NCBI GenBank assembly: GCA_964431835.1
Contig: CAYSKO010000009.1
Coordinates: forward strand, 8,330 to 72,329
DNA length: 64,000 bases
Direction of reading: 5' to 3'
DNA from: an uncultured Planctomycetia bacterium
GTDB lineage: Bacteria > Omnitrophota > Gorgyraeia > 2-02-FULL-51-18
Shown here piece by piece: positions 2 to 64,000 of this stretch (positions are counted from its first letter, which is position 1; each line of letters opens with the position of its first letter). Position numbers and translations under genes: made by a program. The notes below the pieces were generated by a model. It did not search any database. It saw only the letters and a program-made list of their open reading frames with translations, and was not told the origin of the DNA.

Positions 2-3000
2 GATTCCGCGCAGCGCGAGACCCGCCAGTACCGCGGCGGCTCGGCCGGCTCCTCCGTCATCTCCGCAACGATGAAACTGCAGACTTGGACCTATTTCAAG
101 GGCGACGCCGGCGAAGAGCGGACCGACTATCAGCAGAACTACAAGTCCAACGGCACCGACGTGCGGAACACGCAGATCAGCTATTACCAGGATCCCGCAG
201 GCGCCGCCGGCGGGCTCGTACGCGCGGCCGCGGCAGGCCCCGACGCGGCGCTTCGTGAGACGAAACTCTGGCGCGGCGGCACGCCGAATTCGGACACGAT
301 CTCCGCCACGATGAAGCTCCAGACGTGGACCTACTATCTCGGCGAGGTCAATGAAGAGAAGACGGATTATTCGCAGAATTACAAGTCGAACGGCACGGCG
401 GTGCGCAACACGACGCTCTACTACTACGAAAATCCGGCGGGCGCGGGTCTCGTGCGCGCCGTGGGCGCGAACGTCGACTCCGCACAACGCGAGACCAAGC
501 TCTACCGCGGCGGCACCGGCGGCTCGGCCGCCGTCTCGGCCGCGATGAAGCTTCAGACCTGGACTTACTTCCAGGGCCTTTCCGGGGAAGAGAAAACCGA
601 TTACGCGCAGAACTACAAGGCCGACGGCGCGGCCGTCCGTAACACGACGATTTCCTATTATGAGGACCCCGCGGGCGGCGTCGGCCTCGTGCGTGCCGTC
701 GCCGCGACCCCGGACACCGCGCTCCGCCAGACCAAACAGTGGCGCGGCGGCTCGGCCGGTTCCGACGCGATCACCGCCGCGATGAAGCTTCAAACTTGGA
801 TCTACTTCCAGGGCGTCGTCGGCGAGGAAAAGAACGACTTCCTGCAGAACTACAAAGCCAACGGCACCGACGTCCGGAACACGATGTTCTATTATTACGA
901 GGATCCGGCGAACGCCGCCGCCCTCGTGCGGGCGATCGACGCGAACGGCGATTCCGCCCAGCGCGAAACGAAGCTCTTCCGCGGTGGTGCCGCCGGATCG
1001 GACACCATCACCGCCGCGATGAAACTCCAGACGTGGTCGTACTTCAAGGGTCAGGTCAGCGAAGAAAAACTCGACTACGTGCAGAACTACAAGGCGGACG
1101 GCACGACGGTCCGCAGCACCGTGATCACCTATTACGAAGGTCCCACCGGCGGGCTCATCCGCGCCTCGGTCGCCGACGTCGACTCGGCTCAGCGCGAGAC
1201 CAAGAGCTGGCGCGGCGGCGTGGCCGGTGCCGACACGATCTCCGCCACGATGAAACTCCAGACTTGGACGTACTTCCTCGGCGAAGTAAACGAGGAGAAG
1301 ACCGACTACTCACAGAACTACAAGTCCGACGGCACGACGATCCGCAACACGACGCTCCATTACTACGAAGACCCCGCGAACGCCGCGGCTCTCGCGCGCG
1401 CGGCCACTGCCGGAGCGGACTCCGCCCAGAAGGAAACCAAGCTCTACCGCGGCGGCGCCACCGGCTCCGACGACGTCTCGAGCCTCAAGCTCCAGACTTG
1501 GACCTACTTCAAGGGAATGGCCAACGAGGAAAAGACCGATTACCTCCAGAATTACAAACTCGACGGCACCACCGTCCGGAACACCCAGCTTCATTATTAC
1601 GAGGACCCGGCGAACGCGGCGGGTCTCGTGCGCGCGACGGCCGCGGACGTCGATTCCGCCCAGCGCGAGACGAAGCTTTACCGCCGCGGCACCGCGGGCA
1701 CGGACGCGCTCGCCGCCAACATGAAGCTCCAGACCTGGACGTACTTCCAGGGTGTGGCGAACGAAGAAAAGACCGATTACGTTCAGAGCTATCGCACCGA
1801 CGGCGCCACCGTCCGCAACACGACGATCAATTACTACGAAGACCCGGCCAACCCGGCCGGTCTCGTGCGCGCGGTCGCGGCCAGCGTCGATTCCGCCCAG
1901 CGACAGACGAAGGTGTACCGCCTCGGAACGGCTGGCTCGGACAACGTCTCCGCCCTCAAACTTCAGACCTGGACCTACTTCAAGGGCGAGGCGAACGAGG
2001 AGAAGATCGATTACCTGCAGAACTACAAGTCCGACGGCGTCGGCCTCCGCAACACCCAGATCAATTACTACGCCGATCCCGCCGGCGGCACGGGCGTCGT
2101 TCGCGCCACGGCCGCGGACGTCGACTCCGCCCAGCGCGAGACGAAGCTCTGGCGCGGCGGCACGGCGGGCTCGGACGTCATTGGGGCGACGATGAAATTG
2201 CAGAACTGGAGCTACTTCAAAGGCGACGCGAACGAAGAGAAGCTCGATTATCTCCAAAACTACAAGGGCGATGGCACGACGGTCCGCAACACGCAGGTCA
2301 GCTACTATCAGGATCCCGCGAACGCTGCCCCGACGGCTCTCGTGCGCGCCGCCGGCGCCAACTCGGATTCCGCCCAGCGCGAGACGAAGCTCTACCGCCT
2401 GGGCACTGCCGGCTCGGACAACGTCTCCGCCCTCAAGCTGCAGACTTGGACCTATTTCAAAGGCGACGTGAACGAAGAGAAGACCGACTACCTCCAGAAC
2501 TACAAGGTCAACGGCACGACGGTCCGCAACACGACGATCTCGTACTACGAGGGCGCGACCGCCGCCGCCCTAGTCCGCGCCGCCGCCGCCGATCCGGACG
2601 CCGCGCTCCGCGAGACCAAGACGTGGCGCCAGGGCACGGCCGGCTCCGACACGATCGCCGCCACGATGAAGCTCCAGACCTGGACCTACATGAAGGGCTT
2701 CGTCGGTGAAGAGAAGACGGACTTCCTCCAAAACTACAAGTCGAACGGCACCGACGTGCGCAGTACGCAGGTCCACTACTACGAAGACGCGGTGAACGCA
2801 GCAGCCGTCGTTCGCGCCGACGTCGCGGGCCCCGACTCGGCAATGCGTCAGACCAAGCTCTACCGGAAGGGAACTGCCGGATCCGACAATGTCGCGAGCC
2901 TCAAGCTCCAGACCTGGACCTATTTCCTCGGGACTTCGGGCGAGGAGAAGACGGATTACCTTCAGAACTACCGCACCGACGGCGCGACCGTCCGAAACAC

Positions 3001-4700
3001 CCAGCTCCACTATTACGAGGATCCCGCCAATCCAGCCGCGCTCGTGCGTGCGACCGCAACGAACGTGGATTCCGCCCAGCGCGAGACCAAACTCTACCGC
3101 GGCGGCTCGGCGGGCTCCGACGACGTCTCTTCCTTGAAGCTCCAGACTTGGACGTACTTCAAGGGCCTCTCGGGCGAAGAGAAGGTCGACTACACCCAGA
3201 CCTACAAGTCGAACGGAACCGACGTCCGCAACACGACGATTTCCTATTACGAGGATCCCGCCAACGCCGCCGCCCTCGTGCGCGCTTCCACCGCCGACGT
3301 GGATTCGGCGATGCGCGAAACGAAACTCTACCGCCTTGGCACCGCCGGCTCCGACGACGTATCCTCCTTGAAGCTCCAGACTTGGACTTATTTCAAGGGC
3401 GATGTCAGCGAGGAGAAGGTGAACTTCGCGCAAAACTACAAGGCGAATGGTACTGACGTCCGCAACACCACCATTTCCTACTACGAGGACCCCGCCGACC
3501 CGAACGCGCTCGTACGGGCGGCCGCGGCGCAGGCCGACTCCGCGATGCGCGAGACCAAACAGTGGCGCGGAGGCACGGCCGGCTCGGACACGATCTCCGC
3601 CACGATGAAACTCCAGACCTGGACCTACTTCAAGGGCGACGTCTCGGAGGAAAAGACCCACTACATGCAAGCTTACAAGTCCGACGGGAGCGTCCGTTCC
3701 ACGCAGATCTACTATTACGAAGATCCTGCGGGCGGAAACGGTCTGGTGCGCGCCGACGTCGCGGGCGTGGATTCGGCGATGCGCGAGACGAAGATGTTCC
3801 GCCTCGGAACCGCGGGTTCGGACAACGTCTCTTCCTTGAAGCTCCAGACTTGGACATACTTCAAGGGATTCGCGACCGAAGAAAAAACCGACTTCGCGCA
3901 GAACTACAAGTTCGATGGCACGAGCGTTCGCTCGACGACGATCAGCTACTACGAGGACCCCGCGGGCGGGGCGGCTCTCGTGCGCGCGGCGCTGGCGGGC
4001 CCCGACTCGGCGCTTCGCGAGACCAAGATGTACCGTTTCGGTTCGGCGGGTTCCGCGGCGACGGGCGGGCTCAATCTTCAGACCTGGACCTACTTCAAGG
4101 GAATCTCCGGCGAGGAAAAGACCGACTACGCTCAGAACTACAAGCGCGACGGCGTCACGGTACACGGCACCACGATCTCGTTCTACGAGGACCCCGCAGG
4201 TGGCACGGGCGTCGTGCGCGCGGAGACGGCCAACGGCGACTCCGCCCTCCGCGAAACCAAGAGCTACAAGAACGGCACTGGTGGCTCGGACGCGATCGTC
4301 GCCGGTATGGATCTCTTGAGCTGGACCTACTTCAAGGGGCTTTCGAGCGAGGAAAAGAGCGACTTTTCGATCAGCTACAAGAAGAACAACGACGTGCGCA
4401 GCACCCAGATCACCTGGTATGAGGACGTGAACGGCGCCGGTCTTGTGCGCGCGGCCGACGCGGATGTGGATGCGGCGATGCGCGAGACGAAGCTCTACCG
4501 GAAGGGCACGACGGGCTCCGACAACGTCGCGAGCCTCAAGCTCCAGACCTGGACCTACTTCAAGGGCCAGATGAACGAAGAAAAAACCAATTTCTCGCAG
4601 TCTTACTGGACGAACGGAACGACCGTCCAGAACACGACGATTTCCTACTACGAGTCGAACCCCTCGGGCGGCGCGCCCGAGCGCGCGGCCCAGGCGTCCG
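2..4700 (+). repeat. Tandem array of about 20 copies of a 79-aa (237-nt) coding repeat; degenerate copies continue to about nt 5460
   Basis: The motif (M/L)KLQTWTYFKG recurs with its first codon at nt 71, 311, 545, 782, 1019, 1249, 1487, 1721, 1958, 2192, 2435, 2676, 2903, 3135, 3371, 3604, 3838, 4070, 4308 and 4535. Unit consensus: ...SAQRETKLYRGGTAGSDxISAxMKLQTWTYFKGxxxEEKTDYxQNYKxDGTxVRNTxIxYYEDPANAAALVRAxAADVD. Two subtypes alternate: xISATMKLQ with ALRETKxWRGG, versus DNVSALKLQ with SAQRETKLYRLG. The window starts inside a copy, so the array extends upstream. Confidence 0.85.
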
Positions 4701-7700
4701 GCGATCAGGCGCTCGTGCGCAGCGATTCCTTCAAGAAAGGCGCCACCGGCTCCGACAGCACCTCCGGACTCAAGCTTTCTGCCAAGAGCTTCTTCAAGGG
4801 CCTCTCGAGCGAGGAAAAGACCGACTACGCACTCAATTACAACGGTCCCGCGGGTCAGGAAGACGTGGTCTCTGAGACGACGTCCTTCTACGGGGAAGCG
4901 AATCCGAGCCCCGACTACCGCGCTCAGGATGCGTACCTCTACGATCCGATGAAGCGCACTGAAACCCGCATCGGTGGTTCGAATAACGGAACCAACGACG
5001 GCCGTAAACGCACGTTCTCGTACTTCACGGGCAGCTCGGGTGAAGAGAAGGTGCTCTTCACGCAGTCGTACACCTACGACCAGCTCGTGTACGAGACCAC
5101 GAAAAACGCGTACGACCCGAACGACGGCCGCATGACCGAGTCGACGACCTACCGCCGCGGCAGCGAGGGCGTCAGCACCGTGACGGGCCTCCTTAAGAAG
5201 AGCAAGACGGTGTTCGCCGGCGAAGAGAGTTACGAGAAGGTGCACGAGTCGTTCGCGTACCGTCCGAATGGGTCGCTCAAGAACCACACGCTGTCCGAGT
5301 ACGAGGGCGGCTTGCTTGCGACGAACCCGAACATTCCGTTCGAAGCGGCTCTCCGCCGCCAGCAGACCTTCTACGGCCCCGCCTCGGCAGGCCGCCGCGT
5401 GAACGAATCGGTTTATCTCGGGGACTGGAGCGAGGAAAAGATCGACAGGATCACCGATTATAAAGGCGTCGTCACTCAGCACTATTACGACGGGTTCTTC
5501 TTCACTCCGGCCGGCGGCATGATGATGCCGAACGCCGCGCAGCCGAACAAATACGAGCTCGTCACGCGCACGGAGATCATCGGAAACGGCGACGTGAGCT
5601 ACTTCGGCATCAACCAGTTCAAGGAATCGCAGCAGAAATTCCAGACCGACTACAAGGGCACCATCACGACGTACGTTTATGATGCTTCCGACGTGCTCGT
5701 GAAGACGTCGGCCATCCAGACTGTTGCCCGCGCGATCGGCCTCGCCGGCTTCGTGCCGGAGCAGTCGGAGCTCGCGACGTTCTTCGAGCGCGATCTCTAC
5801 CTCGACACACGCGCCGTGTTCTCGACGAACGGCCTCAACAATATCACCTACAACCGCTACGACGGCGGCACCGGCGACCTCTTTTACACCATCGAGGTGA
5901 CGAACGCCTTCGCGGGGGCCGTCGCCGCCGTGAAATCCGCACCGGCCTCGATCGGAGCCTTCATTGGCGGCCTGACCGGCAACCCCGACACGTTCGTCCC
6001 CTCGGGCGGCCTCGGCGTGAACAAGATGACGAAGACTTACATGGAGTACGACCCCGACGACGGCACGACGCGCGCCTCGTTCCAGTTCAGCCCCAGCGGC
6101 AAGCGCATCGCCTTCACCTACGAGAAGATCATCCAGCCGACGTTCCCCGATGCGTCGAAGCGCTACCGCACGCTCGTGACGCGCACCTCGATGGGCATCG
6201 CCTCGACATTCGATTCGATCACGATTCAGAACAAGTACGGCCGCGTGACCGAGACCATCGACGCGGGCGGTATCTTGAGCTACTCGTACTACGTCCCGCC
6301 GCCCGGCCTGTGGGGTGTGCCGCTTAACGAGCAGACCTCGGTGCTCAATACGATCACGAAGTCGGATCTGAACGGCAAGACTCTCCAGACCCTGCAGACC
6401 GAAGTCTGGAACAACCAGGTCCCGATGTCCAACGAGATGGGCGAACAGGCGTTCAACACGCAGATCCTGACGCGCACCGAGTACCGCTATATGGAAGATC
6501 CGAGCACGGGCCTCCTCATCACCGCCGAAGCGGAGACCTATGCGGGCACGATTCGCATCCGCCGCCAAGTGTTCGACCAGTACATGCGCGTCACCGAAAT
6601 CTACGAGTGGCTGCCGACCGAAAACGGCCAGAAGCTGTGGGGCTTGGCGCAGAAATTCACGTACTACACGCCTCCGGGATACGGCCAGTTGAACCTGGGC
6701 GCCGGCGGGATGCTTCCGATGCCGACCAACGCGATCGCCTCGATCGTGAATGGCGGCGCGGTGAACGTCGGCGGCAACCTCGGCGGCGCTTCGCTGACCG
6801 GCGATGCGCTCACCGCGTGGGCCCTCAAGATGATCAACGCCGGCGACGCGTGGAGCAAGTACCAGACGATGGGTACGGGCGTCACGATGGCGATCCTCGA
6901 TTCGGGCTTCAACCTCGATTCCACCGCGGTCTGGAGGAACGCCGCGGAAGCTGCGGGCCTGCCGGGCGTCGACGACGACGGCAACGGCTACATCGATGAC
7001 GTCGACGGCTGGAACTTCGTCGCCGGCAACAACGACGTCTCGGACAAGCTCGGCCACGGCACGAACGTTGCTCGTGCGGCGCTGGCGGCGGCTCCCGGGG
7101 CGAACGTGATGCGTCTCAGCGTTCTCGACGAGTTTGGCCGCGGCACGGTCGAGAAGATCGCCGAGGGCATCGTCTACGCGGCCCGCAACGGCGCGAAGGT
7201 CATCAATCTTTCGATCGGCGGCGGTCTCCTCGACCTCCAAAGCTTCGGCATCGTCCGGACCGCGATCGAGACCGCAATGCAGATGGGCGCGCTCATCGTC
7301 GCGGCCGCCGGCAACCAGGGCAAGGAAGTCGATCCGTACTCGATCGCCGCGATCCAGGGCGTCATCGGCGTCGGCGCCAGCGACCAGGCAGACAAGAAGA
7401 GCGCTTTCTCGAACGTCGGCGGCAACGTCCGGATCGTAGCGCCTTCCGAGAGCGGCACGTCGATGGCGGCTCCGCTCGTCGCCGGCGCGGTCGCGCTCCT
7501 TATGAGCAAATATCCGTACAAGTCCACCGAAGAGATCCGCGGCCTACTCGAAGCGGGCGCGGTCGACCTTGGCGTTCCGGGCTTCGACCGTGAGACCGGC
7601 GCGGGCCGCCTCGATGTTGGCCGCTCTCTCGCCCTCGCGGCGCTTGGCGGTCCGATTTCGCCGCTCGCTCCCCAGGGTCCCGGCCCCGGCGGCTCTCCCG

Positions 7701-10700
7701 TTCCTCCGCCCGCGGGCGGCGAAGACCGCGGCGATCTCCTTTCGGCCCAGGATGGCATTGAGAGTGTCGAGATCACGATGCCCGAAGGCGGCAAGATCCG
7801 TTTCCCCGAAGGCGGCACGGTCGTCAAGAAGGGCGCCACGATCGTTGTGTCGGCCAACGGCGAGATCTCGGTCGAACCCGGCGAGGCCGTCACGCTGATC
7901 GGTGCCGCGAAACTCTTCCTGGTCGGCCCCGCGCTTATCCGCTCGCTGAACAACAACGTCGTTCTCACGTTCCCCAACGGCGGCGCGGTAAACCCGCCCG
8001 CGAAGCAATTTATCCCCGTGAGCGCGGGCAGCAGCGTCGGTCTCGAGGCGGGGGCCAAGCTTTCGTTCAAGAGTGGCGGCACCGTCACCGCGTCGGGCTA
8101 CGCGCGCGTGCGCCTGACCGCCGCCGGCACGCTGACCTTCGCGAACGCGACCCGTGTGATCCACAAGGGCTCTCCGATCATGGTCCCCGCGGGCGGAACA
8201 CTCGCGCTTGACGAGAACGAAGAGGTCATCATGCCGGACGGCGGCAAGGTGACCCTACCGTCGGCCGGAAGCATCCAGGCGGGCGAAACCGCGATCAACG
8301 TGACGCTCAACTCCGCGGCCGAAGTCGCACTCGAGGAGCAAGCGAGCGCCACGATCAAGGACCGCATCTCGAACATGTCTCTCGATGCGGCCAAAACTTC
8401 CGGCGTAATGTACATCGCTGGAAGCGCCCTCACGCTCGACCCGAACACCCGCGTGTACGGCTTGACTGGCCTGCCGACCACGCTTGCGGAGCTCGAGACG
8501 ACGTACCTCGACAACCGTCAGCGTACCTATCTCAAGTTGCTCGTCTCGAAGGACTCGTATGGACAGTGGCGCGCGGACCGCATCGATATGGTCCCGGCCC
8601 CGATCGAAACGACCGCGGGCCAGATCGACAGCCTCTACAACCCGAACGGTCTGAGCGTCCTGCCCGGCGTGCTCGACGGCACGAACGCGGCCGCCGGATT
8701 CGTGCGCTTCAACGACAACGATATCCGCGTGCTCGAGAGCACGATCATCAAGGACGCGAAGGGGAACACGATCACGGGCACGACGGCCGAGAAGATCGCC
8801 GTCCTCGAGCGCATCCGCCTCGAGGCCGAGGCCGACGGCATGATCCCGACCGTGAAGCTCGTCGCCACGAAGTCGGCCGACGGCTGGCAGGCTCTCCAGA
8901 TCCTCGTGACCACGAACCAGCCGACCGATCTCAACCCGACCCGGTTCACCGGCGCGATCACGGCGATCGATATGGCCAAAGGCGAGCTCACCTTCGACGG
9001 TAAGAAGATGACGTTCGACGCGGGCACGTTCATCGACAGCGTCACGGGCGAAGCGATGGAAGCCGCAGCCCTTAAGGCGTTCTTCGACGCGAACGTTTCT
9101 CGCAGCGTCGGTACTTTCGCGAAAGTCAACGCACGCCGCATCAACGGCGAATGGAAACTCGAGCGCATCGGCGTCATCTCCGACAGCGAGGGCGACGCGA
9201 AGCTCTTCGGCACGCTCGAGCTCGTGACCATCGGTGTCGCGCCAGCTCCGACGACAGTCAAGATGAACGGAAAGACGTTCACGCTCGACGCGACGGCTGA
9301 GCTTCTCGACGCCAACGACGCGCCGATCACTGCGCAAACTTTGAGTTCGATCCTCGGCCAGCAGGCGCTGGAAGGCGTCGCGACGAAGATCGATGTGAAG
9401 CTGAAGGCGACCCCGTCCGGCGTGAAGATCACGTCGCTCCGCACGCGCACCCGCCTGCAGTCGACGCTGAATCACACCGCGCAGGTCGTCTCCGTCGTGA
9501 TCGATCCGAACGACCCGACGAAGGGCACGATCGACTTCGGCTCGGGCGTGGTCGCGACCGTGGACGCCGGGACGGTCCTTCGCGACTCGCGCAGCCGCAC
9601 GATCACGCTCGCCGACCTGAAGCCCGAAGATTACGTGCAGATCCGCCTCGTGCAGACTCCCGAGGGCTGGCACGCCGAGCGCGTGACGATCTCCGACGGC
9701 GCCGCGCCGGTCAGCTCCATGACCGGCCCCGTCAACTCCGTGAACGTGAACGCCAACACGCTTTCGATCGCCGGCGTCACCGTGAACGTTTCACAGGACG
9801 CGACCGTCGAGGACGTCGAAGGCCGCATTTTCCCCGGCGGCCTCGCCGATCTGAGCGCCCTTCTTCAGGCCGGCCAGGTCCGCGTTTCCATCAAACTCGC
9901 GCTTCGCAACGGCCAGTGGATCGCGGACCGGATCGTCGTGCAAAGCGTCTCCGCGAAGGCGACCGAATTCGCCAGCTCCTCCATCCAGGCCGCGCACCTG
10001 ACGACGGACGCGCAGGGCAACGTCGTTTCGATGACGGTCAACGGCGAGACGGTGCGGGTCGGAAACGGCGGCACCGACGGCTTCTTCACGCGCGTCGAAC
10101 TGAACTACAAGGATCTCACCGACGTCGCCGGTCTCCAGCGCATCGGCATCCGCACGGACGCCAATTTCCCGGTGAATGACCCGATGTACACGGCCGTCAA
10201 GGGCCTGAACGGTCTTCTGACCGGAGCTTCGCCCACCATCGTCGACCCGACGACGCCCGTCACCGTGAACGTATACGCGGTGAAGGTCGGAAACGAGTGG
10301 CGCGCCTCGAAGGTCGTCGCCCGCACGATCGACGAACTCGCGGGCGGCCCCGGTTCGACGCTGAACGGCCCGCTCGAGGGGGTCGATCTCGACCGGCAGA
10401 TGATCACGATCAACGGCCAGTCGATCGTCGTCTTCAACCCGATGGCCGTCTTCGACGCTAACGGAGAATCCTACTCGCTGGCGGCCCTCAAGGAACTCTT
10501 CGAGGCCAACCGCCTCCGCGGCATCGAGACATACCTGAACGTCAGCTCCGCGCGCGGCTACAACCTGCAGACGAAGGCGATCGGCCACGGCCAGACGGCA
10601 ACGATCAAGAAGACCGTGACGGTGGCTCGTGACTCCAAACTCTCGTTCAACTGGAAGGTTTCCTCGGAAGCCAACGACAAATTCAGCTTCTTTATCGACG

Positions 10701-55700: not shown

Positions 55701-58700
55701 GCATCCTCAACGCCGACATGGACGGGGCCCGAACGAAGGTGGAAGCCGAGAAGTCCGAGCTCGCCCGAGCCGAAGGGGAAGAGGCGAAGGCCAAGGCGGA
55801 AGCGGATCGCGCGGGCCAGGACGCCGCCACTGCGGAGGCCGAGTATATCAGCGCGTCCTCCGAAGCGTCCCGCGCCGAAGCGATCCGTACGGGTCTTGAG
55901 GAAAACACCAGCCGCACCCAAACCCGCGTCGAAGAGACGACCGCCGCCGTCGAAGAAGCCCGCACGCGCGTGGCCGAAGCCGACGCCCGTCTGGGCGAAG
56001 TCGAATCCAAGGGCACCGCCGCTCCCGAAGCGTCCGCAAAGCCCACCGCAGAGGCCGCGCAAGATGCCGCCCGCGCGTACGAAAGCGCCCGAGCGGAAGT
56101 CGAGCGCGTCTTTAAGATCGTGGAACGCGCCCAAGGCGAACACGCCGCCCTTCTGGGATCCAAGAGCCTGGTCAAGGGCATGCTCGAGAAGCTGAACGCC
56201 GAGGTCGAAACCCTCGAGACGAAGAAACAGCAGCTCGAGACGATTCTCGAAGCCTTGAACGTCAAACTCCAGAGTGCCGAAACCCGCGCCGCCGACGGCC
56301 AGCGCCGCGTGGCGGAAGCGGAAGGACGTCTCGAGCAGGCCCGCACGAACCGCGACGCCCAGGCGCCGCGCCTTGAGGCGACCCGCCGCGAAGCGCGTCA
56401 GGAACGCCAGCGTGCGACGGTCGAGCGCGAAGCTGCCGAAACGACGGCGGGCGAAGCGCGCTCCACGGCCGAAACGGCCCGCGCCACCGCCGCCGAATCG
56501 CGCCGCGCGGAAGAGCCTCTCCGCCAGAAAGCCGCCGAAACCCAGGCCAAGCTCGCCGAAAAACGCGCCGAGCGCGACCGGGCCGCCGAGGCCACGAAGC
56601 CCGAAGATGTCACTCGCCTCGAGTCCGAGATCCGCGAAGCGGAAGCCCAGGCCGAAACCGCCGCCCGCGAGCTGGCCGAGGCCGAAGGCAAAACCGGCGA
56701 AGCCGAAGCCGCCGCTCGCTCCGCGGCCGCCGCCGAAACCGCCGCCGAAACCGAAGTTTCGCGGACGCGCGTCGAAGAAAAACGCCTCGGCGAAGAAGCC
56801 GAAACGCAGGAACGCGTCGCCGCCGAAGCGGAATCCCAGAGCCGCGACCTTGACCGCCACGTCGCGGAGGCCGAGCGCCAGGTTTCGGAGGCCCGCGCCG
56901 ACGTGAGCCAGACCCGCGCCGAAGCCGCCGACACCGGCCGTGAGATGAACGAGACGCGTCGCGAGATCGAGGAGATCGAAGACCGCATCAACGTCCTCAA
57001 ACTCCAGATCGTGGGCCTCCTCACCCAGCTTTCCCAGCTCGACGACGACATCGAGAAGGCCGCGCAGCGCGTCGCCGAAGCCAAGCTCGATCTCTCCAAG
57101 GCCCGTGCCGCGGAAGAGAAGGCCCAGGATGCCGTCGCTGAGACCCTGCCCCAGCCGACCATTCACGACGCCGTCAGCTTCGCCGAAGCGCTCCCGTCGA
57201 TGGAAGCGCGCCTCGTCGGCCAAAAGATGCCGCCGTCCGAACGCCGCGCCCGCATGGCGGATCTCGCCGGGAAAGCTCTCGAGCTTGCGCGCGTCGAATA
57301 CGAACGTCGGACCATCGAAAAGAAACTCGGCGTGGGAGAAGGCAGCACGATGACCGTGGGCGAGATCGCGGCGCGGTACCACCAGGCGCTCGAAGGCGTG
57401 AAGAAATTCCTCGAAGCCTCACCGAAGCCCGCGAACGCGGCCTCCGCCGCCGCCCGTGCGCGACTGGTCGAACGTCTGGCCAAGACGCTCGCCGCCCAAG
57501 AAACGCCGGTCGTGAAGGGCCTCGAAGTGAAAGGGGAGAGCGTCGTCGAGATCGTGGGCGCGGGCAAGAAGGTCGGCTTCGATTCGCCCGACGTCATGAG
57601 CCTCGCGGATCTTTCGAAAGCGCACGCCGACTCCTTCCGTACGCGCACTGTCGCCGAGCTCGCCGATCATCTTTCGAACAACGCCGCCGAGCTCCGGCGC
57701 GTGGAAGCGCACCTCGAGAACCCGACGCGCCCGACGCTTCAGTTCGAGCCATTCGGCGAAGCGAAGGTCGAAATCGACGGCCGCAAAACCGCCGCGCGCA
57801 TGGAAATCACGAACGAAACGCTCAAGAAGGCCGTCGCGGAAGTCGAGAAACGCCAGGTGAAGGCGCTGGCGGAATTCTTCGAGAAGAACCCGGAGAAGGC
57901 CGCCGCCTACCGCGAGGCGCTCGAGGCCCAGGCGAAGAAACAGTCCGAGAACGCGCAGGACGTCTCGCAAGCCAAAGACACGATCGACGGCTTGGCTCGC
58001 ACGGCGCTCGTCGAAGCGCTCGAAGCTCTGCCTCCGGCCGCCCACGGCGTCCGCGTCGAAATGCTCCGCCTCGCGCTCGGCCTCAACGGCAACGTTCCGG
58101 CCGCGATCCTGGCTCTCCAAAACGCCGGTCTCGCTCCAAAGACCGGCGAAACCGCCGCGGCGAAGCCTGCCGAGCGCGACACGCTGATCCGCCTCCTTCT
58201 CGACCTGCCGCCCGCCGCGCGGAACGCGGCGCTCTCATCTCTCCGCGCCGCCGAGCGCACGCACCGCGCCGGGGAAGCGCGCCAGACGATCGAACGCATG
58301 GAGAAGCTCACCCTCGAAGAGCGCGAGACGCTGAACCGCGCCGCCGAGACGGGCGACCTGGACACGCTGACGGGCAAGCTCGAGCCGCTCAAGGCGTTCG
58401 GCCGCGACGCCCTCTACGAAGCCACCGAGCTCCGCGGCCAGCGCGTGGCGGAGGCGTCCTCCGCCGCCCGCGTCGGCACCGCGATCGACGCGCTCATGCG
58501 CCTCAACGTGGACGCCGCCGGCGCCGCGAAAATACGCACCCAGCTTGAGTCCGACATCGCCAACCGCGGCAAGGAAGGCTACGTCGACAACCGCACTCTC
58601 TTCGATTCGAAGCTCGCGGAGCCGATCAAGTCGTTCGCGAGCGAAACGCTCGTCGAGGCCGCTCGCCGCATCGAAGCGGGCGAGGGCGCGAAGGGCCGCG

Positions 58701-61700
58701 TGACCGCCGCCCAGCTCGAGACGCTCCGCACGAACCTCGCCGAAGGCGCCGCTCCGAAGGCCCCCGAGGCGCTTCGCCGCTTCGACGCGGAAATCCTCGC
58801 CGAAGCGCTCGAAGTCGGCAAACTGGAAACTCTGAAGGCGGCCGAGATCGTCCGCACGCTGACTCTGGCCGAGCGGAACGCGATCCGCGAGCTCGGCGCC
58901 GTCGACGGAACGCTCGCCCGCTTCGACGCCGAAACACTCGCGACCGCGCTCGGCATGAACAAAGCCGAGCTCGCCGCGGCCCGCAAGCTTCTGGACGGCG
59001 TGCAGGAGACGGTGCTTCGCGGAATCCTTTCCGCGCTGCCCGACGGCGCGCGTTCCCTGACTGTTCGCGACATCCTCGACGCCGCCCGTCCCGCCGACGG
59101 CATCCTGAGGGACAAAGTGGAACTCGCCAAGGCGGAGTTCGACGCCTTGAAGCTCCACGCCGAGGAGCGCGAGGCGATCGCGGCCGACGCGGCCGCCGGC
59201 CGTATCGACGCGGCGCGCGAGAAACTCACCCGCGCCGCCGAACGCGCGGCCGTGGCGCTCGAAACCGAGCTCACCGAATCGGTCACCGCCAAGCGGATCA
59301 CGCCCGAAGTGAAGGCCGAACGCCTCGAGGCCTTCCGTAAAGGTCTCGCCGAGACGATCGCGGCCGTGGAAGCTCCCGCCCTCGGCGAAGCGATGCACCG
59401 CCTCACCAACTCGGCGGAGGTCCTGAAGGCGCGCAGAGCCTTCAAGGCGTTCGAACAATTCCTCGTGTTCCAGGTCAAGGCGGGCCGTATGACCGAGGGC
59501 CAGCGCCGTACCGCGCTCCTCGAGATGCGGAACGAGCTCCTGCACGGCCGGTCGGACGCGGTCAAGGAAAATGCGGTCAAGGCGCGCTTCGACGGCTTCA
59601 AGGCGTTCTCCCTCGAAGTGCTTCGCGAGGCGGCCGGCGTGAGCGCTGACGTCGCCTCCCGCGCGCACCAGGCGGCCCAGCAGACGATCTTCGAATTCTC
59701 TCGCTCTATCCAGCGTGATCTTCTGGCCAAGGTCGAAAAGCTCACTCTTCTGGCCAAGGTCGAAGCCGGGGATCTCGCGGTTCTTCCGGAAGGCCTCCGC
59801 GGAAAATCGCTCGAGGTGCTGCGTCAGGCCCTCGGGGCGACCTCCGAGCAAGTGGTTTTCGCCCGCGAAGCGGTCGGCGCCCTTGCGATTCCGGAGCTCC
59901 GCCGCCTGGGCGTCGAAGTGGCCCGCGATCTTCTGCGCCGCGCCGAAGCCGCCGAGCGCGACGGCCGCGCCGCCGAAGCCGCCGAGCTGCGCGACGCCTT
60001 CGCGATGGTCGGCGCCCGCGTCGCCGTGGAGCTCGAAGCCCACGCCGAACGGGCCGAAAAGAACGGCAACAAGGCCAAAGCCGCGGAGTTCCGCGACGCC
60101 GCCCGGTCGCTCGTCGAGGAAATCCGGAGCGAAGCGCTGGCCGCGGAAGAGGTCGCCCGCCTCTCGTCCGCCGAACTCGCGAGCGTGAAAGAAGCCCTCG
60201 TCCGCGGCGAAGTGAAGGGAGAGCTGGCCCTCTTCGGCGAACGGGCCGTCCGCAAGGCCGTCCTCGCCCGCGAAGCCGCGGAAGGCAAGTTCCGCGGTGA
60301 CGGCACGACGCGCGGCGAGCTTCCCGAGAAGGTCCGCGCGTTCTCGATCGAAACCCTCAAAGCGGCGCTCGGCGTCCGCGCCGAGCTCGTGCGTCCCGTG
60401 ACGAAGGTCACGGTCGAAGGACGCGAGCTCTCGAGCGCGGTGGTCCGCGACGCGCTCGCCCGCAACGTGGACGCGCAAGCCGACGCGCTCCTGGCCCGCT
60501 TCAAGGTCGCGCCCGCTCCGCGTTTCTCCGCCGCCGACTGGGTCTCTTCAAAAGTCGGCCGCGAGACGCGTGACGCGCGGGCGCAGCGCAAGCTCACCGA
60601 GACCCTTCTGGGCATGGGCGAAGCGAAGACGCACAAATTCGGCTACGAAGCGCCTCCCGCGCCGGCTCCTCGCCGGACCCGCAGCGGCGCGCCCGCGCGT
60701 GAAGGCAAGCTGGATTTGGGAGTGTTCTTCGACGCCTACCAAGTCCTTACCCAGGGCCGCGCCCAGGTCTTCAGCCGTGAAGCGATCAACCGCGCGCTCC
60801 AGAAACTCGAACAGAAGACGATGGGCGTCGACGCCGCCGCGAAATTCGTGCTCGAATGCCTCACCGTGGGCAACACGATGGAGCAGTACAACAAGCTGAA
60901 GACGCAGAAGCTCGACAAAGAAAGCGAAAGGGAGAACCTGGCCGCGCTGGAGGTCATTGCCAATCCGATGGAAGTTGCACGCCGCCTCGGCGAGTCCGTC
61001 GTCGAGAAGATCCAGGCGAAGGGCGAGGCGTACCTCCTTGCCAAAGAAGCGGTCGCCCAGCTGGAAAACGCGACTACCCGCAGAGCGCTCGAAGTCGCTC
61101 AGAGCGAACTCATGACGGCCTTCCGCGAAGCGCGCGGCGGCGCGAAGAACCAGTCGTTCCTCGATCTGGCCGTCAAGACGGGCATGGTCGAGAAGGCCGA
61201 ATTCGGGGACGTGTTCAACGCCTACAAGGCGCTCCGCGTCGGGGAAACCTCCGGTGGCTACGCCGAGTTCAACACGAAGAACCGTGCGTCGATCGAGCGC
61301 GTGATGTCCGAGTACAAGCTCGAGTTCGACGCGTACGAGAAGAGGCTTTCCGGCGACCCGATGACCCGGATCAAGCAGCTCAACGAGATCATGCGCCAGG
61401 AACAGGCGGCCGCGCCGGGCGAACGCGTCGGCGTGATCAAGGCGACGGCGATCACGGATCTCATCTTCCGCAATTCGTACGTGTCGGAAGGCACGAAGAT
61501 GCACCTGAAGGACGCCGGCTGGCGCCCGGGACAGCGCCTCATGATCATGCATCTCATGGGGAACAACAGCGTCTCGCTCGGAACCGCCGGCGGCAAAACG
61601 TACACCCTCATGGGCTACCACATCATGCGGCGCCTCACCGACGGCGAGACCTACCGCGGCAAGCAGGTCGTGGAAAGCCCCGACGCCGTGAACCAGATCA

Positions 61701-64000
61701 TCTCCGCCATGGAGCTCAAACTCCGCGTGGAAGGCAAGAAGACGGACGCGGAGATCTTCAGCGAGCTCGAATCGCGCCGTTCGGAGCTCAACTCCGAGCA
61801 TATCGTCATTAAAAACATGATGAAGGCCTCGGGCCTGCGCCTCTTCAACGCGACCGCCTACCAGGGCGGCGAGCTGCGTAACCACTCGGAACGGAGCGCG
61901 CGCGTGATCGACGCTCATACCGACAAGAACACGATCGTCGTCATCGATACCGTCAACAACGTCCACTTGAGGAACGAAGCGAAGTCGGCTGCCGAGAAGG
62001 GCGACACCAAGCTCTTCGAAGCGCTCCTCAAGTCGCGCTTCATCACGCTCGACGAATTCCACAAGTTCCTTTCGAACAAGAACTCGGGCATCATCGCGGA
62101 AAACCAGCGCATGCCGGAGCCTCGCGAAATCGAGTCGCTCATGGAAAACGTGATTTCGAAAATCGCGGACTCAAACTTCAAGCTCCATTGGGAGCCGGTG
62201 CGTTATTCCACGGAGACCGAATTTGAGGCGGCCGTCGCGAAGTACACGAACGGCGAAGGCGCGAACGAAATGAAGATCCTCATCAATTCCGAGACCGGAC
62301 AGATCAACCTGAGCAAGGCTCTCAACGACAGCCTGCGCACGGCGCTCGGCCCCGAGTTCGGTAAGGTGCGCTCGGTCATCTCGGCGCTGGACGCGAACGA
62401 ATTCCATTACAAGATCCATACCGACAAGGAAGGCAAGACGAAGGTCATCCCGGTCAACGGCCGCGAAGGCACGCCGAGCCCCGATTCGAGCTTCCAGGAC
62501 ATCGAGTACTCGATGACGCTGGCCCTGAAGCACACGAAGGGCAACACGGCGACCGCCCGAGAGATGGTCAGCCGCAGCGATACCTCGATGTCGAGCGCGA
62601 TCGCCGAGAGCGTGCACATCCCCGGCGCGGTCGTCACCGGCGTCTCGGGCACGCTCGGCGGCCTCGAGGCTCTCCAGAAATTCCAGATTGGCGAGAGGGT
62701 CGTGAACATCTCGGGTTCCGTGCTCGACGCGGTCCGCGTGGGCGGCACGAGGGGCCAGATCTTCGACATGTCGACCGGCGAGCAGGAATGGCTCGACGGC
62801 ATCAATTCGTCGCTCCGCGAGAACGTCACGGTACTCCTGGTCGTGAGCGCGAAGGAGCGCGACGCGATCGAGAAGTTCCAGAAAGGCGACTTATTCAAGT
62901 CCGCCGACGGCAAGCCGGTCGAAGTCGCGAAGATCGACTCCAACACGAGCGGCGAATCGAAGAACGGCCAGGCTTCGGAGATGGATCAGCTCGTCAAGTC
63001 GCCGTGGGGCAAGGACGGCCGCGCCCGCGTCATCCTCATCACCGAGCGCGGCTGGACGGGCCGTGACTACGCCCAGAACGCGGAGCTCGCGAAGTTCGTC
63101 GACGGCAAGCTCATGCACCAGTCGGTGCACATGGCCTTCTACAAGGCGCACACGATCGGCGCCTCCGACTTCGTGCAGGCCCTCGGCCGCGCCGGCCGCA
63201 GCGAAACCGAGGCCACGGTTCGCCGCTACTTCCTCGTGGACAAAACCGAGATCCGCCAGCGCCTTTCGGATCTGAACGACGGCCGCGTCCGTTCGGATTT
63301 CCGCCAGAAACTGAACGAGCGCCTCCGCGACAACCCCGCGGCGGTCGGCGAGACGCTGCGTCTCCTCAACAATTACGAGCGCCGCCTCAACATCGAAGAC
63401 TTGAGTCCCTCCGAACAGCTGCGCTTGAACGCTCAGTTCCTCGAGCTTTCCAACGCGATCGCCGACGGCGCGCGTCACACGGTCCGCGAGAACTGGCGCA
63501 GCTCGATCGAAATCGACCCGTTCCATCAGGCCATCAAGGCCGCCGCTCTCGCCGGCGGCAAGGGGAGCGCCCACTACCGCCGTCTGGACAAGGCTTACAA
63601 GGATCTCCTCGGCAAGCAGAGCGAAGGCGGCGATCTGACGCTGAAGGACGCCGGCGTGGGCAGCGGCGTCGACTTCGTGATGGACACGGCGCGCCAGAGC
63701 GTGAAGAACGCCAAGGAAGCGTGGAAGAACGTCGTCGACAGCATGGACGCGTCGAGCTTCGGCGCGGGCCGCCTTCTGGGCCGCGTGCCCTTCTCGATCC
63801 GCTTCTGGAAAGGCATCGTGCCGATTCCGTCGACTTCCGCGCCCGCGTACGAAGCGCGCCAGACGCTCGCCAAGCTCGAAGCGCTCGAGAAGGCTTTCCT
63901 GACCGGTAACATCGAAGCGACGCGCCTGCAGGTCGAGCGCGTCCAGCTCGGCCTCGACTCCGGCAAGGTCCGTGTCGAAACGCGCGGCATCGGCCGCCTC
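2..64000 (+). CDS. Internal fragment of a giant multidomain protein gene (21,333 codons in window; 5' and 3' ends lie outside the window)
   Basis: Continuous translation in the phase beginning at nt 2 gives protein-like sequence end to end. Hand translation at more than 10 checkpoints stayed in the same phase (atg 71, atg 545, GVTMAILD at 6881, GHGT at 7052, RWSYKK at 11222, atg 30527, atg 45986, Cys 51869, atg 52886, Lys 61595, GKVRVETRGIGRL at 63962..64000). The ORF track contains no + ORF in this phase, whereas an in-phase stop would have produced a reported Met-to-stop ORF, so there is no stop in 64 kb. Third codon positions are strongly G/C-biased in this phase only. Recognisable catalytic motifs (S8 triad, TGase triad, Walker A) all fall in this phase. 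Confidence 0.9.
6790..7650 (+). other. Subtilisin-like serine peptidase (MEROPS S8) domain embedded in the giant ORF; catalytic Asp/His/Ser all present
   Basis: Asp motif GVTMAILDSGFN (Asp codon 6899..6901). Calcium-loop-like DDDGNGYIDDVDGWNF. His motif DKLGHGTNVARAAL (His codon 7055..7057). NGAKVINLSIGGG, then AAAGNQG (oxyanion Asn region). Ser motif SESGTSMAAPLVAGAVALLMSKYP (Ser codon 7460..7462). Order and spacing D...H...N...S match subtilases. Confidence 0.85.
7750..10450 (+). other. Beta-rich region with several DUF5666-like short modules (tentative family assignment)
   Basis: Recurrent pattern G(T/S)V..VD....(T/S)I.V.G..V.V....(T/S)..........L..L..G..V.V. Examples: GTVLRDSRSRTITLADLKPEDYVQIRLVQTPEGWHAERV near 9570 and DATVEDVEGRIFPGGLADLSALLQAGQVRVSIKL near 9800. 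Family name is from memory of the DUF5666 consensus and is not verified. Confidence 0.35.
10570..14740 (+). repeat. About 10 tandem 140-aa beta-sandwich repeats (MAM/CUB-like jelly-roll; family tentative)
   Basis: Each unit shows ...G.W..Q.....(S/A)..S..I...........(S/T)F.WK(V/L)....(A/S).D.(F/L).(F/V)Y(V/I)DGV.......(G/D).W......L..G.H.L.W.Y(D/K)(R/K).(S/G)......D.A(W/Y)(I/V)D(E/D)(V/I). Units begin near 10570, 11000, 11330, 11740, 12170, 12610, 13030, 13470, 13900 and 14320 with X(T/G)F.YP.GT.LPLP.G(Y/F)T..G.W.NQN. Confidence 0.6.
14790..18670 (+). repeat. 7 tandem 185-aa repeats resembling Laminin_G_3 / concanavalin-A-like lectin domains
   Basis: Each unit contains ...Y(V/L)YFR(M/T)......GYA..(I/V)......(L/I)YR.......(I/L)......GAS(Y/F)DP(A/T).YH.LK(V/A)..DG..I.V.VDG........D..Y.G........(G/I)......P(V/I)WFDDV(K/R)(V/A). 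The WFDDV-type terminal motif recurs near 15285, 15840, 16400 (TFDDF), 16970 (IFDDF), 17525, 18085 (SFDDV) and 18655. Confidence 0.6.
18700..30450 (+). repeat. About 36 tandem 95-115-aa repeats (DUF5666-like beta modules; novel-looking array), some with Cys-pair inserts
   Basis: Period is about 300-340 nt. Recurring unit: G(E/D)W.(F/L)......(F/L)..........(S/T)LL..V......I.L.DG..I.(L/I)G...I(Y/F)WWNG.......(A/S).L...I......G..V. Examples start at 19378, 19687, 19960, 20270 and 20570, continuing to about 30450. Variant units carry Cys pairs: CAIGQGC (19241..19261), NCWNCY (23087..23098), NNCGSSLCP (23403..23425), CNSWSCY (27472..27489). Confidence 0.6.
30450..36450 (+). other. About 2,000-aa non-repetitive region of unknown function (mixed alpha/beta, many W/Y/D/N)
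   Basis: No internal periodicity seen by eye and no catalytic motif recognised with confidence. Contains the segment GISAFSAMSIF...AGAKLLVHMGDDHYITVDEYDAENDQIWFYED (30560..30930), which loosely resembles a papain/C39-like fold without the Cys. Confidence 0.4.
36450..42600 (+). repeat. About 21 tandem 85-115-aa repeats of a QQMRIQGPG family (unassigned)
   Basis: Unit: (F/V)...G(F/G)(S/A)(V/L).(A/V)(T/S)FE(K/L)(N/D)GV(S/T)QQMRIQGPG(A/S).VEV.V.(A/T)...DGT....AW(V/I)G(R/G).........NA...A..AA..DLST...REAF(M/L)..FE. The QQMRI motif occurs at roughly 38870, 39190, 39450, 39760, 40120, 40450, 40760, 41030, 41350, 41600, 41950 (TQTMRIAQAGG) and 42250; earlier copies are more divergent. Confidence 0.8.
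42900..44350 (+). other. Thr/Gly/Asn-rich beta region with YD/RHS-repeat-like motifs (tentative)
   Basis: Motifs of the Y.YD..G.. type: REFTYNPDGSS, EHSEYNADGDRTRMT, QRIVYNDGSVGVQTTRG, GVYRLNADGTVHYSGG, FRYTFQADGTVLATDVRTGR, TLNAAGNGVTWNENAS. No canonical RHS C-terminal DPxGL pair was recognised. Confidence 0.35.
45400..46540 (+). other. Polytopic membrane block: 8-9 predicted transmembrane helices (Gly/Ala-rich)
   Basis: Hydrophobic stretches of about 20-25 aa: SYVYIVGAIALAAATCWIPGV; VVTASIAAGVAFTVAVVAQVVA; ILFNAINAAAQSFALANGLAALGQLV; VTRAVTLGLTFAAANVAMTVGAQAV; ITAGMVWTAAIQGFVVGVTAGYGA; AITNGVIATARAVQYGVMFTVPSMIMCGLGFLLAAEVGAAA (probably two helices); VTAFVSGAIVGMIINYATS; TFGLGALEWGTMVSVPFTIANGLV; GGIAGALKGIIGWFHP. 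Short polar loops lie between them. The block is flanked upstream by beta repeats and downstream by alpha-helical/charged sequence. Confidence 0.6.
48590..49320 (+). repeat. About 4 tandem 60-aa alpha-helical repeats
   Basis: 180-nt period: N..(K/R)L.G.D..KL..(V/L)A.A...NA..L..AA.(I/V)LG.(E/G)(H/N).(A/S)V..AA..LA(N/D)AITKV......N, starting near 48595, 48775, 48955 and 49135. Confidence 0.5.
51780..52070 (+). other. Transglutaminase-like (papain-fold) domain core with Cys-His-Asp
   Basis: GEMIKEGVGVCRQKAMLVGFLLAEVGVKAKL (Cys codon 51869..51871). GETYGGHAWLTVEVNGKKFYFDPTWAEG (His codon 51986..51988, Asp codon 52031..52033). This reproduces the G.C...A.L...LLR..G(I/V).AR ... HAW.EV...G.W...DPT signature of transglutaminase-like cysteine-protease domains. 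Confidence 0.65.
53263..53400 (+). repeat. In-frame 18-nt (hexapeptide) short tandem repeat, about 8 units
   Basis: ETKIETETRTETETRTEAEVRTEAEVRTEAEVRMEAETRTEAE; nucleotide units such as actgaagccgaagttcgg / accgaagctgaagttcgc / accgaagcggaagttcgc at 53315..53368. Confidence 0.8.
57400..60550 (+). other. Alpha-helical region with recurring F..E.L..ALG-type motifs (unassigned)
   Basis: RRFDAEILAEALEVGK, ARFDAETLATALGMNK, FKAFSLEVLREAAGVSAD, RGKSLEVLRQALGATSEQ, VRAFSIETLKAALGVRAE each precede Ala/Leu/Arg/Glu-rich helices. Confidence 0.4.
61380..63260 (+). other. SecA-like SF2 (DEAD-like) ATPase motor domain: NBD1, PPXD-like insert, NBD2
   Basis: Q-to-Walker-A spacing identical to SecA: PGQRLMIMHLMGNNSVSLGTAGGKTYT (Lys codon 61595..61597; compare SecA [27 protein letters not shown]). 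Walker-B position is IVVIDTVNNVHLRNEA (compare ALVDEVDSILIDEA), so the catalytic Glu appears replaced. An insert of about 230 aa ends ...SMTLALKHTKGNTATAREMVSRSDTSMSSAIAESVHIPGAVVTGVSGTLGGLEA, paralleling the SecA PPXD C-terminal part and the KLAGMTGTADTEA motif. Motif V-like ARVILITERGWTGRDY (compare IATNMAGRGTDI). Motif VI-like FVQALGRAGRSETEATVRRYFLVD (compare [24 protein letters not shown]), codons 63184..63198 for GRAGR. Confidence 0.6.

Follow-up and report, generated by a model that had tools for sequence, protein, structure and literature searches.

The 64,000-nucleotide (nt) stretch analyzed here, referred to as the window (positions 8,330-72,329 of contig CAYSKO010000009.1), is an internal fragment of one giant gene, which is open at both window ends and encodes an arm of tandem repeats with a subtilisin-type protease, a polytopic hydrophobic block, a long helical region and a very divergent SecA-type ATPase. 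The original prediction, made from the sequence alone, had placed these parts in this order on a single polypeptide, and our analysis bears out that linear architecture. The gene is a real, very divergent example of an architecture class that has been in print since 2022-2023 for giants of the Omnitrophota and related bacteria, and it overturns nothing; it is best explained as coming from an uncultured bacterium of the Omnitrophota or Planctomycetota-Verrucomicrobiota-Chlamydiota (PVC) type.

Read from nt 2 on the plus strand, the window contains no stop in 21,333 codons, where its composition would lead one to expect ∼536, and the remaining five frames hold 42-872 stops each. The G+C content of third codon positions (GC3) is 0.80-0.88 in all 6-kb blocks versus 0.39-0.52 for second positions (GC2; the overall GC content is 64%). 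The lack of stops and the uniform GC3 thus indicate that the entire window is coding in one frame; amino acid (aa) positions are counted from nt 2 (nt = 2 + 3(aa - 1)). Twelve open reading frames (ORFs) of 661-2,644 codons on the minus strand (window 2573-60547) all fall into a single antisense frame, whose first codon position pairs with the sense third position (GC1 ∼0.86, GC3 ∼0.56). This is the pattern of shadow ORFs of a GC3-rich plus frame, and we rejected them as genes. No tRNA and no Rfam family was found in the 64-kb window.

Repeat-rich metagenome sequence misassembles easily, and we thus considered that the ORF could be a chimera of misassembled repeats or a pseudogene in decay. Copies in the most regular repeat array are ∼70% identical at the nucleotide level and the repeats share 20-70% aa identity, hence they are diverged rather than identical, which argues against a collapsed or chimeric assembly. 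Zero stops in the frame, uniform GC3, intact catalytic motifs in three enzymes and a module order common to independent metagenome-assembled genomes (MAGs) speak against an artefact as well, which makes this explanation hardly credible. An origin from a phage or from a mobile-element "polyvalent protein" was rejected, as tblastn returned no phage match and the relatives described below sit in chromosomal contigs of MAGs.

In the ATPase, motifs I, II, III, V, and VI agree with those of SecA in both order and chemistry. Motif I reads LGTAGGKT (aa 20526), with residues T, G, K, and T invariant in the four closest sequences (alignment A2), and motif II reads LDEFH (aa 20683-20687, DEFH from 20684), with D, E, and H invariant in 8/8 sequences of alignment A1; the latter is thus of the DExH kind, compared with DEVD in SecA. 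An insert of 196 aa separates motifs II and III, as does the preprotein cross-linking domain (PPXD, 180 aa) in Escherichia coli SecA. Past this insert, DTSMSSAIAE...VTGVSGT (with TSMSSAIAE..GVSGT at aa 20880) parallels NQTLASITFQ...LAGMTGT of SecA, the motif III signature being GxSGT in the window and GMTGT in SecA. Motif V (ERGWTGRD, aa 21013-21022, within ITERGWTGRDY) corresponds to ATNMAGRGTDI, and motif VI (QALGRAGRS, aa 21059), which is followed by conserved helices, corresponds to QLRGRSGRQ.

Sequence identity with SecA is ∼11-13%, however, and there is no similarity at the level of hidden Markov models (HMMs): the Pfam models SecA_DEAD (PF07517) and SecA_PP_bind (PF01043) and the NCBIfam SecA model give no match to the ATPase even at E ≤ 10, which weighs against a SecA assignment. 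A profile of the ATPase searched against PDB sequences found only non-significant NS3 and Mfd fragments, and an hhalign comparison with the single E. coli SecA sequence was uninformative. A single-sequence AlphaFold prediction was unusable (predicted local distance difference test score 40.5); an alignment of eight sequences yielded a model of medium confidence, whose best structural matches are to SecA, highest among superfamily 2 (SF2) proteins. The helices past domain 2 are conserved, but modeled with low confidence. We conclude that the ATPase is an SF2 motor of the SecA type, which is very divergent and, judging from its intact motifs, probably active as an enzyme. The predicted ATP-dependent SecA-like motor thus stands on motif order, motif spacing, and structural matches, although neither Pfam nor NCBIfam calls it SecA. 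Unlike SecA, it is embedded in a giant polypeptide, downstream of that polypeptide's own membrane block.

When 1.84 billion representative proteins were searched exhaustively with HMMER, only 12 relatives of the ATPase emerged, mostly from Omnitrophota MAGs. They include hypothetical proteins from Candidatus Omnitrophota MAGs (MBI4432771.1, MCG3176814.1, MFH1857727.1, and MCA9396008.1), two fragments from "Deltaproteobacteria" MAGs, and unnamed metagenome proteins. The closest relative, L007 (38% identity, E 3e-149), was located in a GTDB pattern scan with A2 and is part of a giant ORF in a MAG labeled "uncultured Planctomycetia". Both this protein and P0001, the latter from an Omnitrophota MAG, keep the window order of a Gly/Ala-rich hydrophobic block, a helical region, and the ATPase, which is followed by a tail. 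In both proteins, the tail extends ∼2,290-2,360 aa past the ATPase, contains HExxH motifs and ends in ...SA, and the homology of the relatives to the window stops ∼30 aa before nt 64000. The tails of P0001, P0003, P0005, and L007 have in common a conserved putative metallopeptidase motif (e.g. LLIHEMLHAVSKDFANHDIREG) and a similar ...SA C terminus. Pfam searches with P0004-P0011, L004, L002, and L007 returned no informative domain.

The polypeptide had been described as ending in its motor ATPase. The frame reaches nt 64000 without a stop, and the relatives run ∼2,290-3,400 aa beyond the ATPase; the window cuts the gene, and the terminal position of the motor is an effect of the window edge. 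The full protein is longer than the 21,333 aa encoded here, probably with ∼24,000 aa or more.

A hydrophobic block had been predicted at nt 45400-46540, and hydrophobicity scans confirm it as a dense cluster at aa 15136-15516 (nt 45407-46549), the only one of its kind in the protein, with 6-11 candidate helices. Six strong segments begin at aa 15136, 15158, 15270, 15304, 15362, and 15398, three weaker ones at aa 15461, 15496, and 15618 (the last spanning 15618-15638), and two putative ones at aa 15215 and 15561. Our TopPred-like scan reports nine "certain" and two "putative" segments, and a stricter hydrophobicity cut retains six. The segments are rich in Gly, Ala, and Ser, unlike classic Leu/Ile-rich membrane helices. 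Exactly at the block, the composition of the protein changes from Thr/Ser/Asn/Gly-rich to Ala/Glu/Arg/Lys-rich. Word-indexed homologue searches with the block, with the ATPase region, and with alignment A1 gave no relative, but the A1 search missed even P0001, a protein of the searched collection whose ATPase region belongs to that alignment, and hence these results are not evidence of absence.

Subtilisins with a calcium loop, DUF1080, LamG, and carbohydrate-binding module (CBM)-like domains are overwhelmingly extracytoplasmic domain types. Because all of these occur in the arm, and because the composition switches at the block, general knowledge of the families suggests that the arm is exported. 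The reading that we prefer, to which we assign a slightly better than even chance, is a surface arm that is tethered to the producer's membrane by the block, with the helical region, the peptidase, and the motor in the cytoplasm, where the motor would drive translocation. The repeat/protease/lectin arm would be exported, presumably via an N-terminal signal beyond the window, and displayed at the surface, where it could attach to and digest the envelope or polymers of another cell. The hydrophobic block would hold the arm in the cytoplasmic membrane of the producer, and everything downstream of it, including the transglutaminase-like peptidase and the motor, would remain in the cytoplasm. If the motor works as SecA does, it may spend ATP on pushing unfolded polypeptide through a channel, which could be SecYEG or formed by the protein's own helices. 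At an elongation rate of ∼15 aa/s, the motor is made last, >20 minutes behind the N terminus, and it would thus more likely act in trans, on later copies or on neighboring giants, than on its own nascent chain. The S8 and transglutaminase-like peptidases may in addition cut the precursor into pieces. Besides the domain types and the compositional switch, the continuous coding frame, the intact motifs of the two peptidases and the ATPase, the module order kept by P0001 and L007, the giant genes that neighbor those of the relatives, and the published reading of such proteins speak for this arrangement.

Several observations weigh against this arrangement. We enumerated subsets of the candidate helices and scored their Lys + Arg (K+R) bias, a crude method in which odd and even helix counts score alike. 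The top bias values (12-16, for 7-10 helices) all belong to solutions with the N-terminal flank in the cytoplasm, and a topology with the N terminus outside and the C terminus inside reaches 10. Solutions with 6, 8, or 10 helices place both flanks on the same side, and those with 7 or 9 helices score nearly as well. The charge evidence thus tilts mildly away from a simple N-out/C-in picture, and at 6-11 helices the parity is ambiguous; since the blocks of the window, L007, and P0001 are not alignable, helix parity is not transferable between the homologues. The N terminus of the gene, and hence any signal peptide, lies outside the window. Among the relatives, P0005 (L002/L003 10001-24637) has a signal-peptide-like N terminus (MKPFFRKPENRSRNGWMRALLRPLALLLCLGVAGQDTAWA) and is otherwise devoid of hydrophobic segments up to its ATPase; if this signal is functional, the ATPase would lie outside the cytoplasm. 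In P0003, YD-like repeats and the ATPase are not separated by any strongly hydrophobic segment (Kyte-Doolittle score > 1.5). The argument that an ATPase must reside in the cytoplasm of its own cell is therefore not uniformly supported in this family, as P0005 illustrates. The predicted topology of an arm outside and a motor inside agrees with the published reading of such proteins, but it is not secured by a helix count of 6-11 or by an N-out/C-in bias of only 10.

The same charge scores bring up a mostly cytoplasmic, membrane-tethered giant, in which an even number of helices would leave the motor on the cytoplasmic face together with the 15,000-aa arm. Such a protein would fit the cytoplasmic N-terminal flank of the best positive-inside solutions and the same-sided 6-, 8-, and 10-helix solutions, as well as an arm that is nearly free of cysteines. 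P0003, which starts with MATLSPEQL and shows no signal-peptide features or segment above the hydrophobicity cut-off before the ATPase despite its repeat arrays, is likewise consistent with it, and a "TM-only" (transmembrane) class has been predicted for 46% of the long Omnitrophota proteins (Nielsen & Lui 2026). We nevertheless regard this topology as unlikely: the subtilisin with its calcium-type loop and the DUF1080, LamG, and CBM-like modules are extracytoplasmic types, the sharp compositional switch at the block suggests two compartments, and the scoring method that favors it is crude and gives near-equal values for 7 and 9 helices.

The Gly/Ala/Ser-rich hydrophobic segments and the N terminus of P0005 would also suit a toxin-like polyprotein, which would be secreted as a whole, bind its target with the arm, insert the block into the target membrane, and release its C-terminal enzymes (the transglutaminase-like peptidase, the ATPase, and the HExxH tail) into the target cytoplasm after autoproteolysis. 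Two peptidases could process the protein, the charge bias that disfavors N-out/C-in in the producer membrane would be accommodated, YD-like repeats can be made out by eye in both the window and P0001, and P0003 carries a faint Pfam record of RHS_repeat. A SecA-type translocation motor is no known toxin cargo, however, and a cargo of 6,000-8,000 aa would far exceed any known translocated effector. RHS_repeat goes undetected by Pfam in the window, no known toxin domain was found anywhere in the 21,333 aa, and no type I secretion system (T1SS), type VI secretion system (T6SS), or Tc partner is visible within the window, which has no flanking genes. We therefore consider the toxin-like model improbable. 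It draws on a general likeness to MARTX, large clostridial, and Rhs/YD toxins, which are likewise very large, are secreted, and unite receptor-binding repeats, an autoprocessing cysteine or other peptidase, and enzymatic cargo with a hydrophobic region for membrane insertion. These toxins and the window protein showed no relationship in sequence or Pfam searches; the latter is 4-10 times larger, its cargo would be a translocation-type ATPase, and no dedicated secretion system was seen.

The two intact-looking peptidase domains in cis raise another reading, which is compatible with any topology: the S8 and transglutaminase-like peptidases could cut the ORF product into many proteins, so that no mature molecule would join motor and appendage. 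The same idea has been raised for the S8 and C39 domains of other giants (West-Roberts et al. 2023), and the MAG of P0003 spreads comparable material over consecutive genes of 3,709, 928, 1,732, 6,331, and 12,700 aa. Yet the peptidases could equally be directed at substrates of prey or host, and a polyprotein precursor of this kind appears possible, if on balance doubtful.

Returning to the membrane-tethered arm with a cytoplasmic motor, the C-terminal module of block, spacer, motor, and HExxH tail could in itself be a self-contained translocon, which would export or retract giant polypeptides of the surface with no need for the housekeeping Sec system. The candidate module is common to about a dozen proteins, whose MAGs are assigned to Omnitrophota, Planctomycetia, and "Deltaproteobacteria"; we hold this extension to be quite improbable.

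The original prediction stated that no protein with this combination had been described, which is wrong. West-Roberts et al. 2023 (bioRxiv 10.1101/2023.11.21.568195) report giants with N-terminal S8 or C39 peptidases and, in their "Dockerin-type" proteins, a long N-terminal part that is free of TM helices and contains DUF1080, with TM anchors and SecA-related domains coming after it, close to the C terminus; they already suggest self-export, and the SecA-like domains of these giants are said to lack the scaffold and wing domains. Seymour et al. 2023 (PMC10066038) described giant ORFs from the class Omnitrophia that encode TM helices together with large extracellular domains for adhesion, among them Laminin_G_3. 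Among 5,761 proteins of ≥10,000 aa, Nielsen & Lui 2026 define a "tandem-repeat scaffold" class, which includes high-copy PF13385, and a SecA_DEAD architecture cluster. They find that 80% of the clusters at 30% identity are singletons, and sequence-unique giants are thus the norm.

The known Omnitrophota giants (Dockerin-type, Archaeovorin, the Omnitrophia ORFs, and the 39,678-aa protein of Velamenicoccus archaeovorus) share with the window an ORF of tens of thousands of codons and a TM-free, repeat-built N-terminal part with S8, DUF1080, and Laminin_G_3 modules. They also share TM anchors near the C-terminal third and, downstream of these, a divergent SecA-like DEAD domain that carries an insert of the preprotein-binding type; Omnitrophota MAGs are also where the closest ATPase relatives come from. 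Giants of this kind are often encoded near type II secretion or pilus genes, and the window has no flanking genes. In Pfam searches of the 21,333 aa, the window protein differs from Dockerin-type giants by having no dockerin, TSP3, or discoidin domain, and from Archaeovorin by having no glycosyltransferase, methyltransferase, or NUDIX domain. Its ATPase is missed by the Pfam model SecA_DEAD, whereas the published sets of giants were defined by that model. A transglutaminase-like peptidase, four repeat families with no known relatives, and a GC content of 64% further set it apart. The protein thus fits neither of the named subtypes, but it does fit the looser "tandem-repeat scaffold" class. Giant RTX/Bap-type surface adhesins (e.g. 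SiiE, LapA, MpIBP, and the 36,805-aa protein of Chlorobium chlorochromatii) resemble the window protein in their diverged tandem β-type repeats and lectin-like modules, which serve cell-cell or cell-surface attachment. Unlike the window protein, they have no internal polytopic block, no helical region of several thousand residues, and no ATPase, and they are exported by a T1SS via a C-terminal signal.

Giants of Omnitrophota and related uncultured bacteria are generally regarded as machines for attachment and cell-wall degradation in ultra-small predators or episymbionts, and how polypeptides of tens of thousands of residues are exported, anchored, and processed is a general puzzle. New in the present case are the four repeat families with no known relatives and a SecA-like motor that is invisible to Pfam. 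The recurring C-terminal module offers a handle for asking if giants carry their own export motor; should the translocon reading hold true, it would represent a new protein-export machine that is built into its own substrate.

Table 1. Features of the window protein, with nucleotide positions in the window and residues counted from nt 2
Feature	Position (nt)	Strand	Residues (aa)	Basis
Giant ORF, internal fragment, 21,333 codons	2..64000	+		Stop count, GC3
At least 23 diverged 78-aa repeats	2..5383	+	1-1794	Tandem Repeats Finder (TRF), self-BLAST, HMM iteration, alignment A3
Peptidase S8 (subtilisin)	6872..7606	+	2291-2535	Pfam PF00082 (E 8.8e-35), motifs
About ten ∼145-aa repeats, weakly CBM35_2/CE2_N/Big_7-like	10532..14911	+	∼3511-4970	Self-BLAST, weak Pfam
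About seven ∼187-aa repeats of DUF1080/3-keto-disaccharide-hydrolase and Laminin_G_3 type	14639..18667	+	∼4880-6222	Pfam, self-BLAST
12 copies of a ∼70-100-aa repeat	19331..22756	+	6444-7585	Self-BLAST, HMM iteration
17 copies of a ∼80-100-aa repeat	23879..28609	+	7960-9536	Self-BLAST, HMM iteration
Non-repetitive, largely helical stretch, Lys/Asp/Gln-rich	30449..36001	+	∼10150-12000	Periodicity, sequence
19 copies of a ∼80-110-aa repeat	36680..42457	+	12227-14152	Self-BLAST, HMM iteration
Polytopic hydrophobic block, Gly/Ala-rich segments	45407..46915	+		Kyte-Doolittle and TopPred-like scans, charge-bias enumeration
Amphipathic helical repeats just past the membrane block	48449..49477	+	16150-16492	Self-BLAST, periodicity
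Ala/Glu/Arg/Lys-rich, coiled-coil-like region	49799..57151	+	∼16600-19050	Composition, periodicity
Transglutaminase-like (papain-fold) cysteine peptidase core	51704..52021	+	17235-17340	Pfam PF01841, motifs
Divergent SecA-type SF2 ATPase	61367..63916	+	20456-21305	Motif order and spacing, structural matches

The arm (Table 1) had been characterized as β-rich and adhesion-type throughout, with a subtilisin that bears a calcium loop. The S8 peptidase with its calcium-type loop and the DUF1080, LamG, and CBM-like modules are present, but the helical stretch at aa ∼10,150-12,000 is not β-rich. The S8 domain scores 120.8 bits against a Pfam cut-off of 21.8 and has all catalytic residues (Asp-2300, His-2352, and Ser-2487) and the oxyanion residue Asn-2402, in the motifs DSG (2300), HGT (2352), NLSIG (2402), and GTSMAAP (2485). 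It contains an Asp-rich loop of the calcium type (DDDGNGYIDD) and matches an NCBIfam mycosin-like model with an E value of 6.5e-29, under the cut-off of that model. The sequence thus points to an intact, active-looking peptidase. A DUF5666 domain (aa 3241-3311; 39.1 bits, cut-off 27) lies just upstream of the ∼145-aa repeats, and the ∼187-aa repeats, which match PF06439 (3keto-disac_hyd, DUF1080; E 6.1e-27) and PF13385 (Laminin_G_3, a concanavalin-like lectin domain; E 9e-10), are of a kind typical of secreted PVC proteins.

The N-terminal 78-aa array has a TRF period of 234/468 nt (∼70% identity) and the consensus ..KLQTWTYFKG..EEKTDY.QNYK.DGT.VRNT.I.YYEDPA.., which resembles YD/RHS repeats by eye alone; RHS_repeat (PF05593) was not detected by Pfam in the window. 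Matches of this repeat to picornavirus VP4 (Pfam Pico_P1A, E 5e-4; PDB profile, E 0.004) were judged to be compositional chance. In profile searches, neither the 78-aa repeat nor the 12-, 17-, and 19-copy families have a significant relative in Pfam or among PDB sequences. The 19-copy family has the consensus ..TFE.NG..QQMRI.G.G..VEV......DGT.V..W.GR.... Within the helical island, aa ∼10500-12000 (31499-36001) produced only weak apolipoprotein/dynamin-helical noise and no database match. A sub-threshold match to a GspA peptidase C39-like domain (E 0.18) was observed at aa 10279-10325 (30836-30976), around GDDHYITVDEYD; this segment has no cysteine at the expected upstream position.

Downstream of the block, ∼4,800 aa of helical sequence lead to the ATPase. 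A charged, α-helical coiled coil with a transglutaminase-like domain had been proposed for this part, in accordance with its Ala/Glu/Arg/Lys-rich composition, its 3.5-residue periodicity, and a match to Transglut_core (PF01841). The periodicity is the strongest in the protein at aa 16150-16492, and aa 16183-16556 can be weakly aligned to the L007 ORF (BLAST E 2e-4). The coiled-coil-like region that follows gives weak SMC/Rad50 coiled-coil matches and low-complexity self-similarity. The PF01841 match is marginal (E 4.1e-5; 24.2 bits versus a cut-off of 23), and the triad is present, with Cys in GVGVCRQKA, His in GGHAW, and Asp in YFDPT. Within the Ala/Glu/Arg-rich helical region, positions 53294-53397 form a short tandem repeat of 18/36 nt (CGCACCGAAGCCGAAGTT).

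Apart from the ATPase module, the window shows no resemblance to the large-gene loci of the relatives. One such locus (L001 1-38996) is a cluster of large genes of 3,709, 928, 1,732, 6,331, and then 12,700 aa. Another (L002/L003 1-34637) encodes proteins of 4,955/5,152, 4,878, and then 10,307 aa; between them lie genes for a TPR protein and for a membrane protein of the Dpy19 family (C-mannosyltransferase-like). In L004 (17912-22387), small genes of the toxin-antitoxin type (DUF4258/DUF2283, ParE_toxin) and an AAA_14/DUF4143 ATPase come after the fragment of the giant gene for P0001. The GC content of one Omnitrophota relative locus is 63%, compared with 64% in the window.

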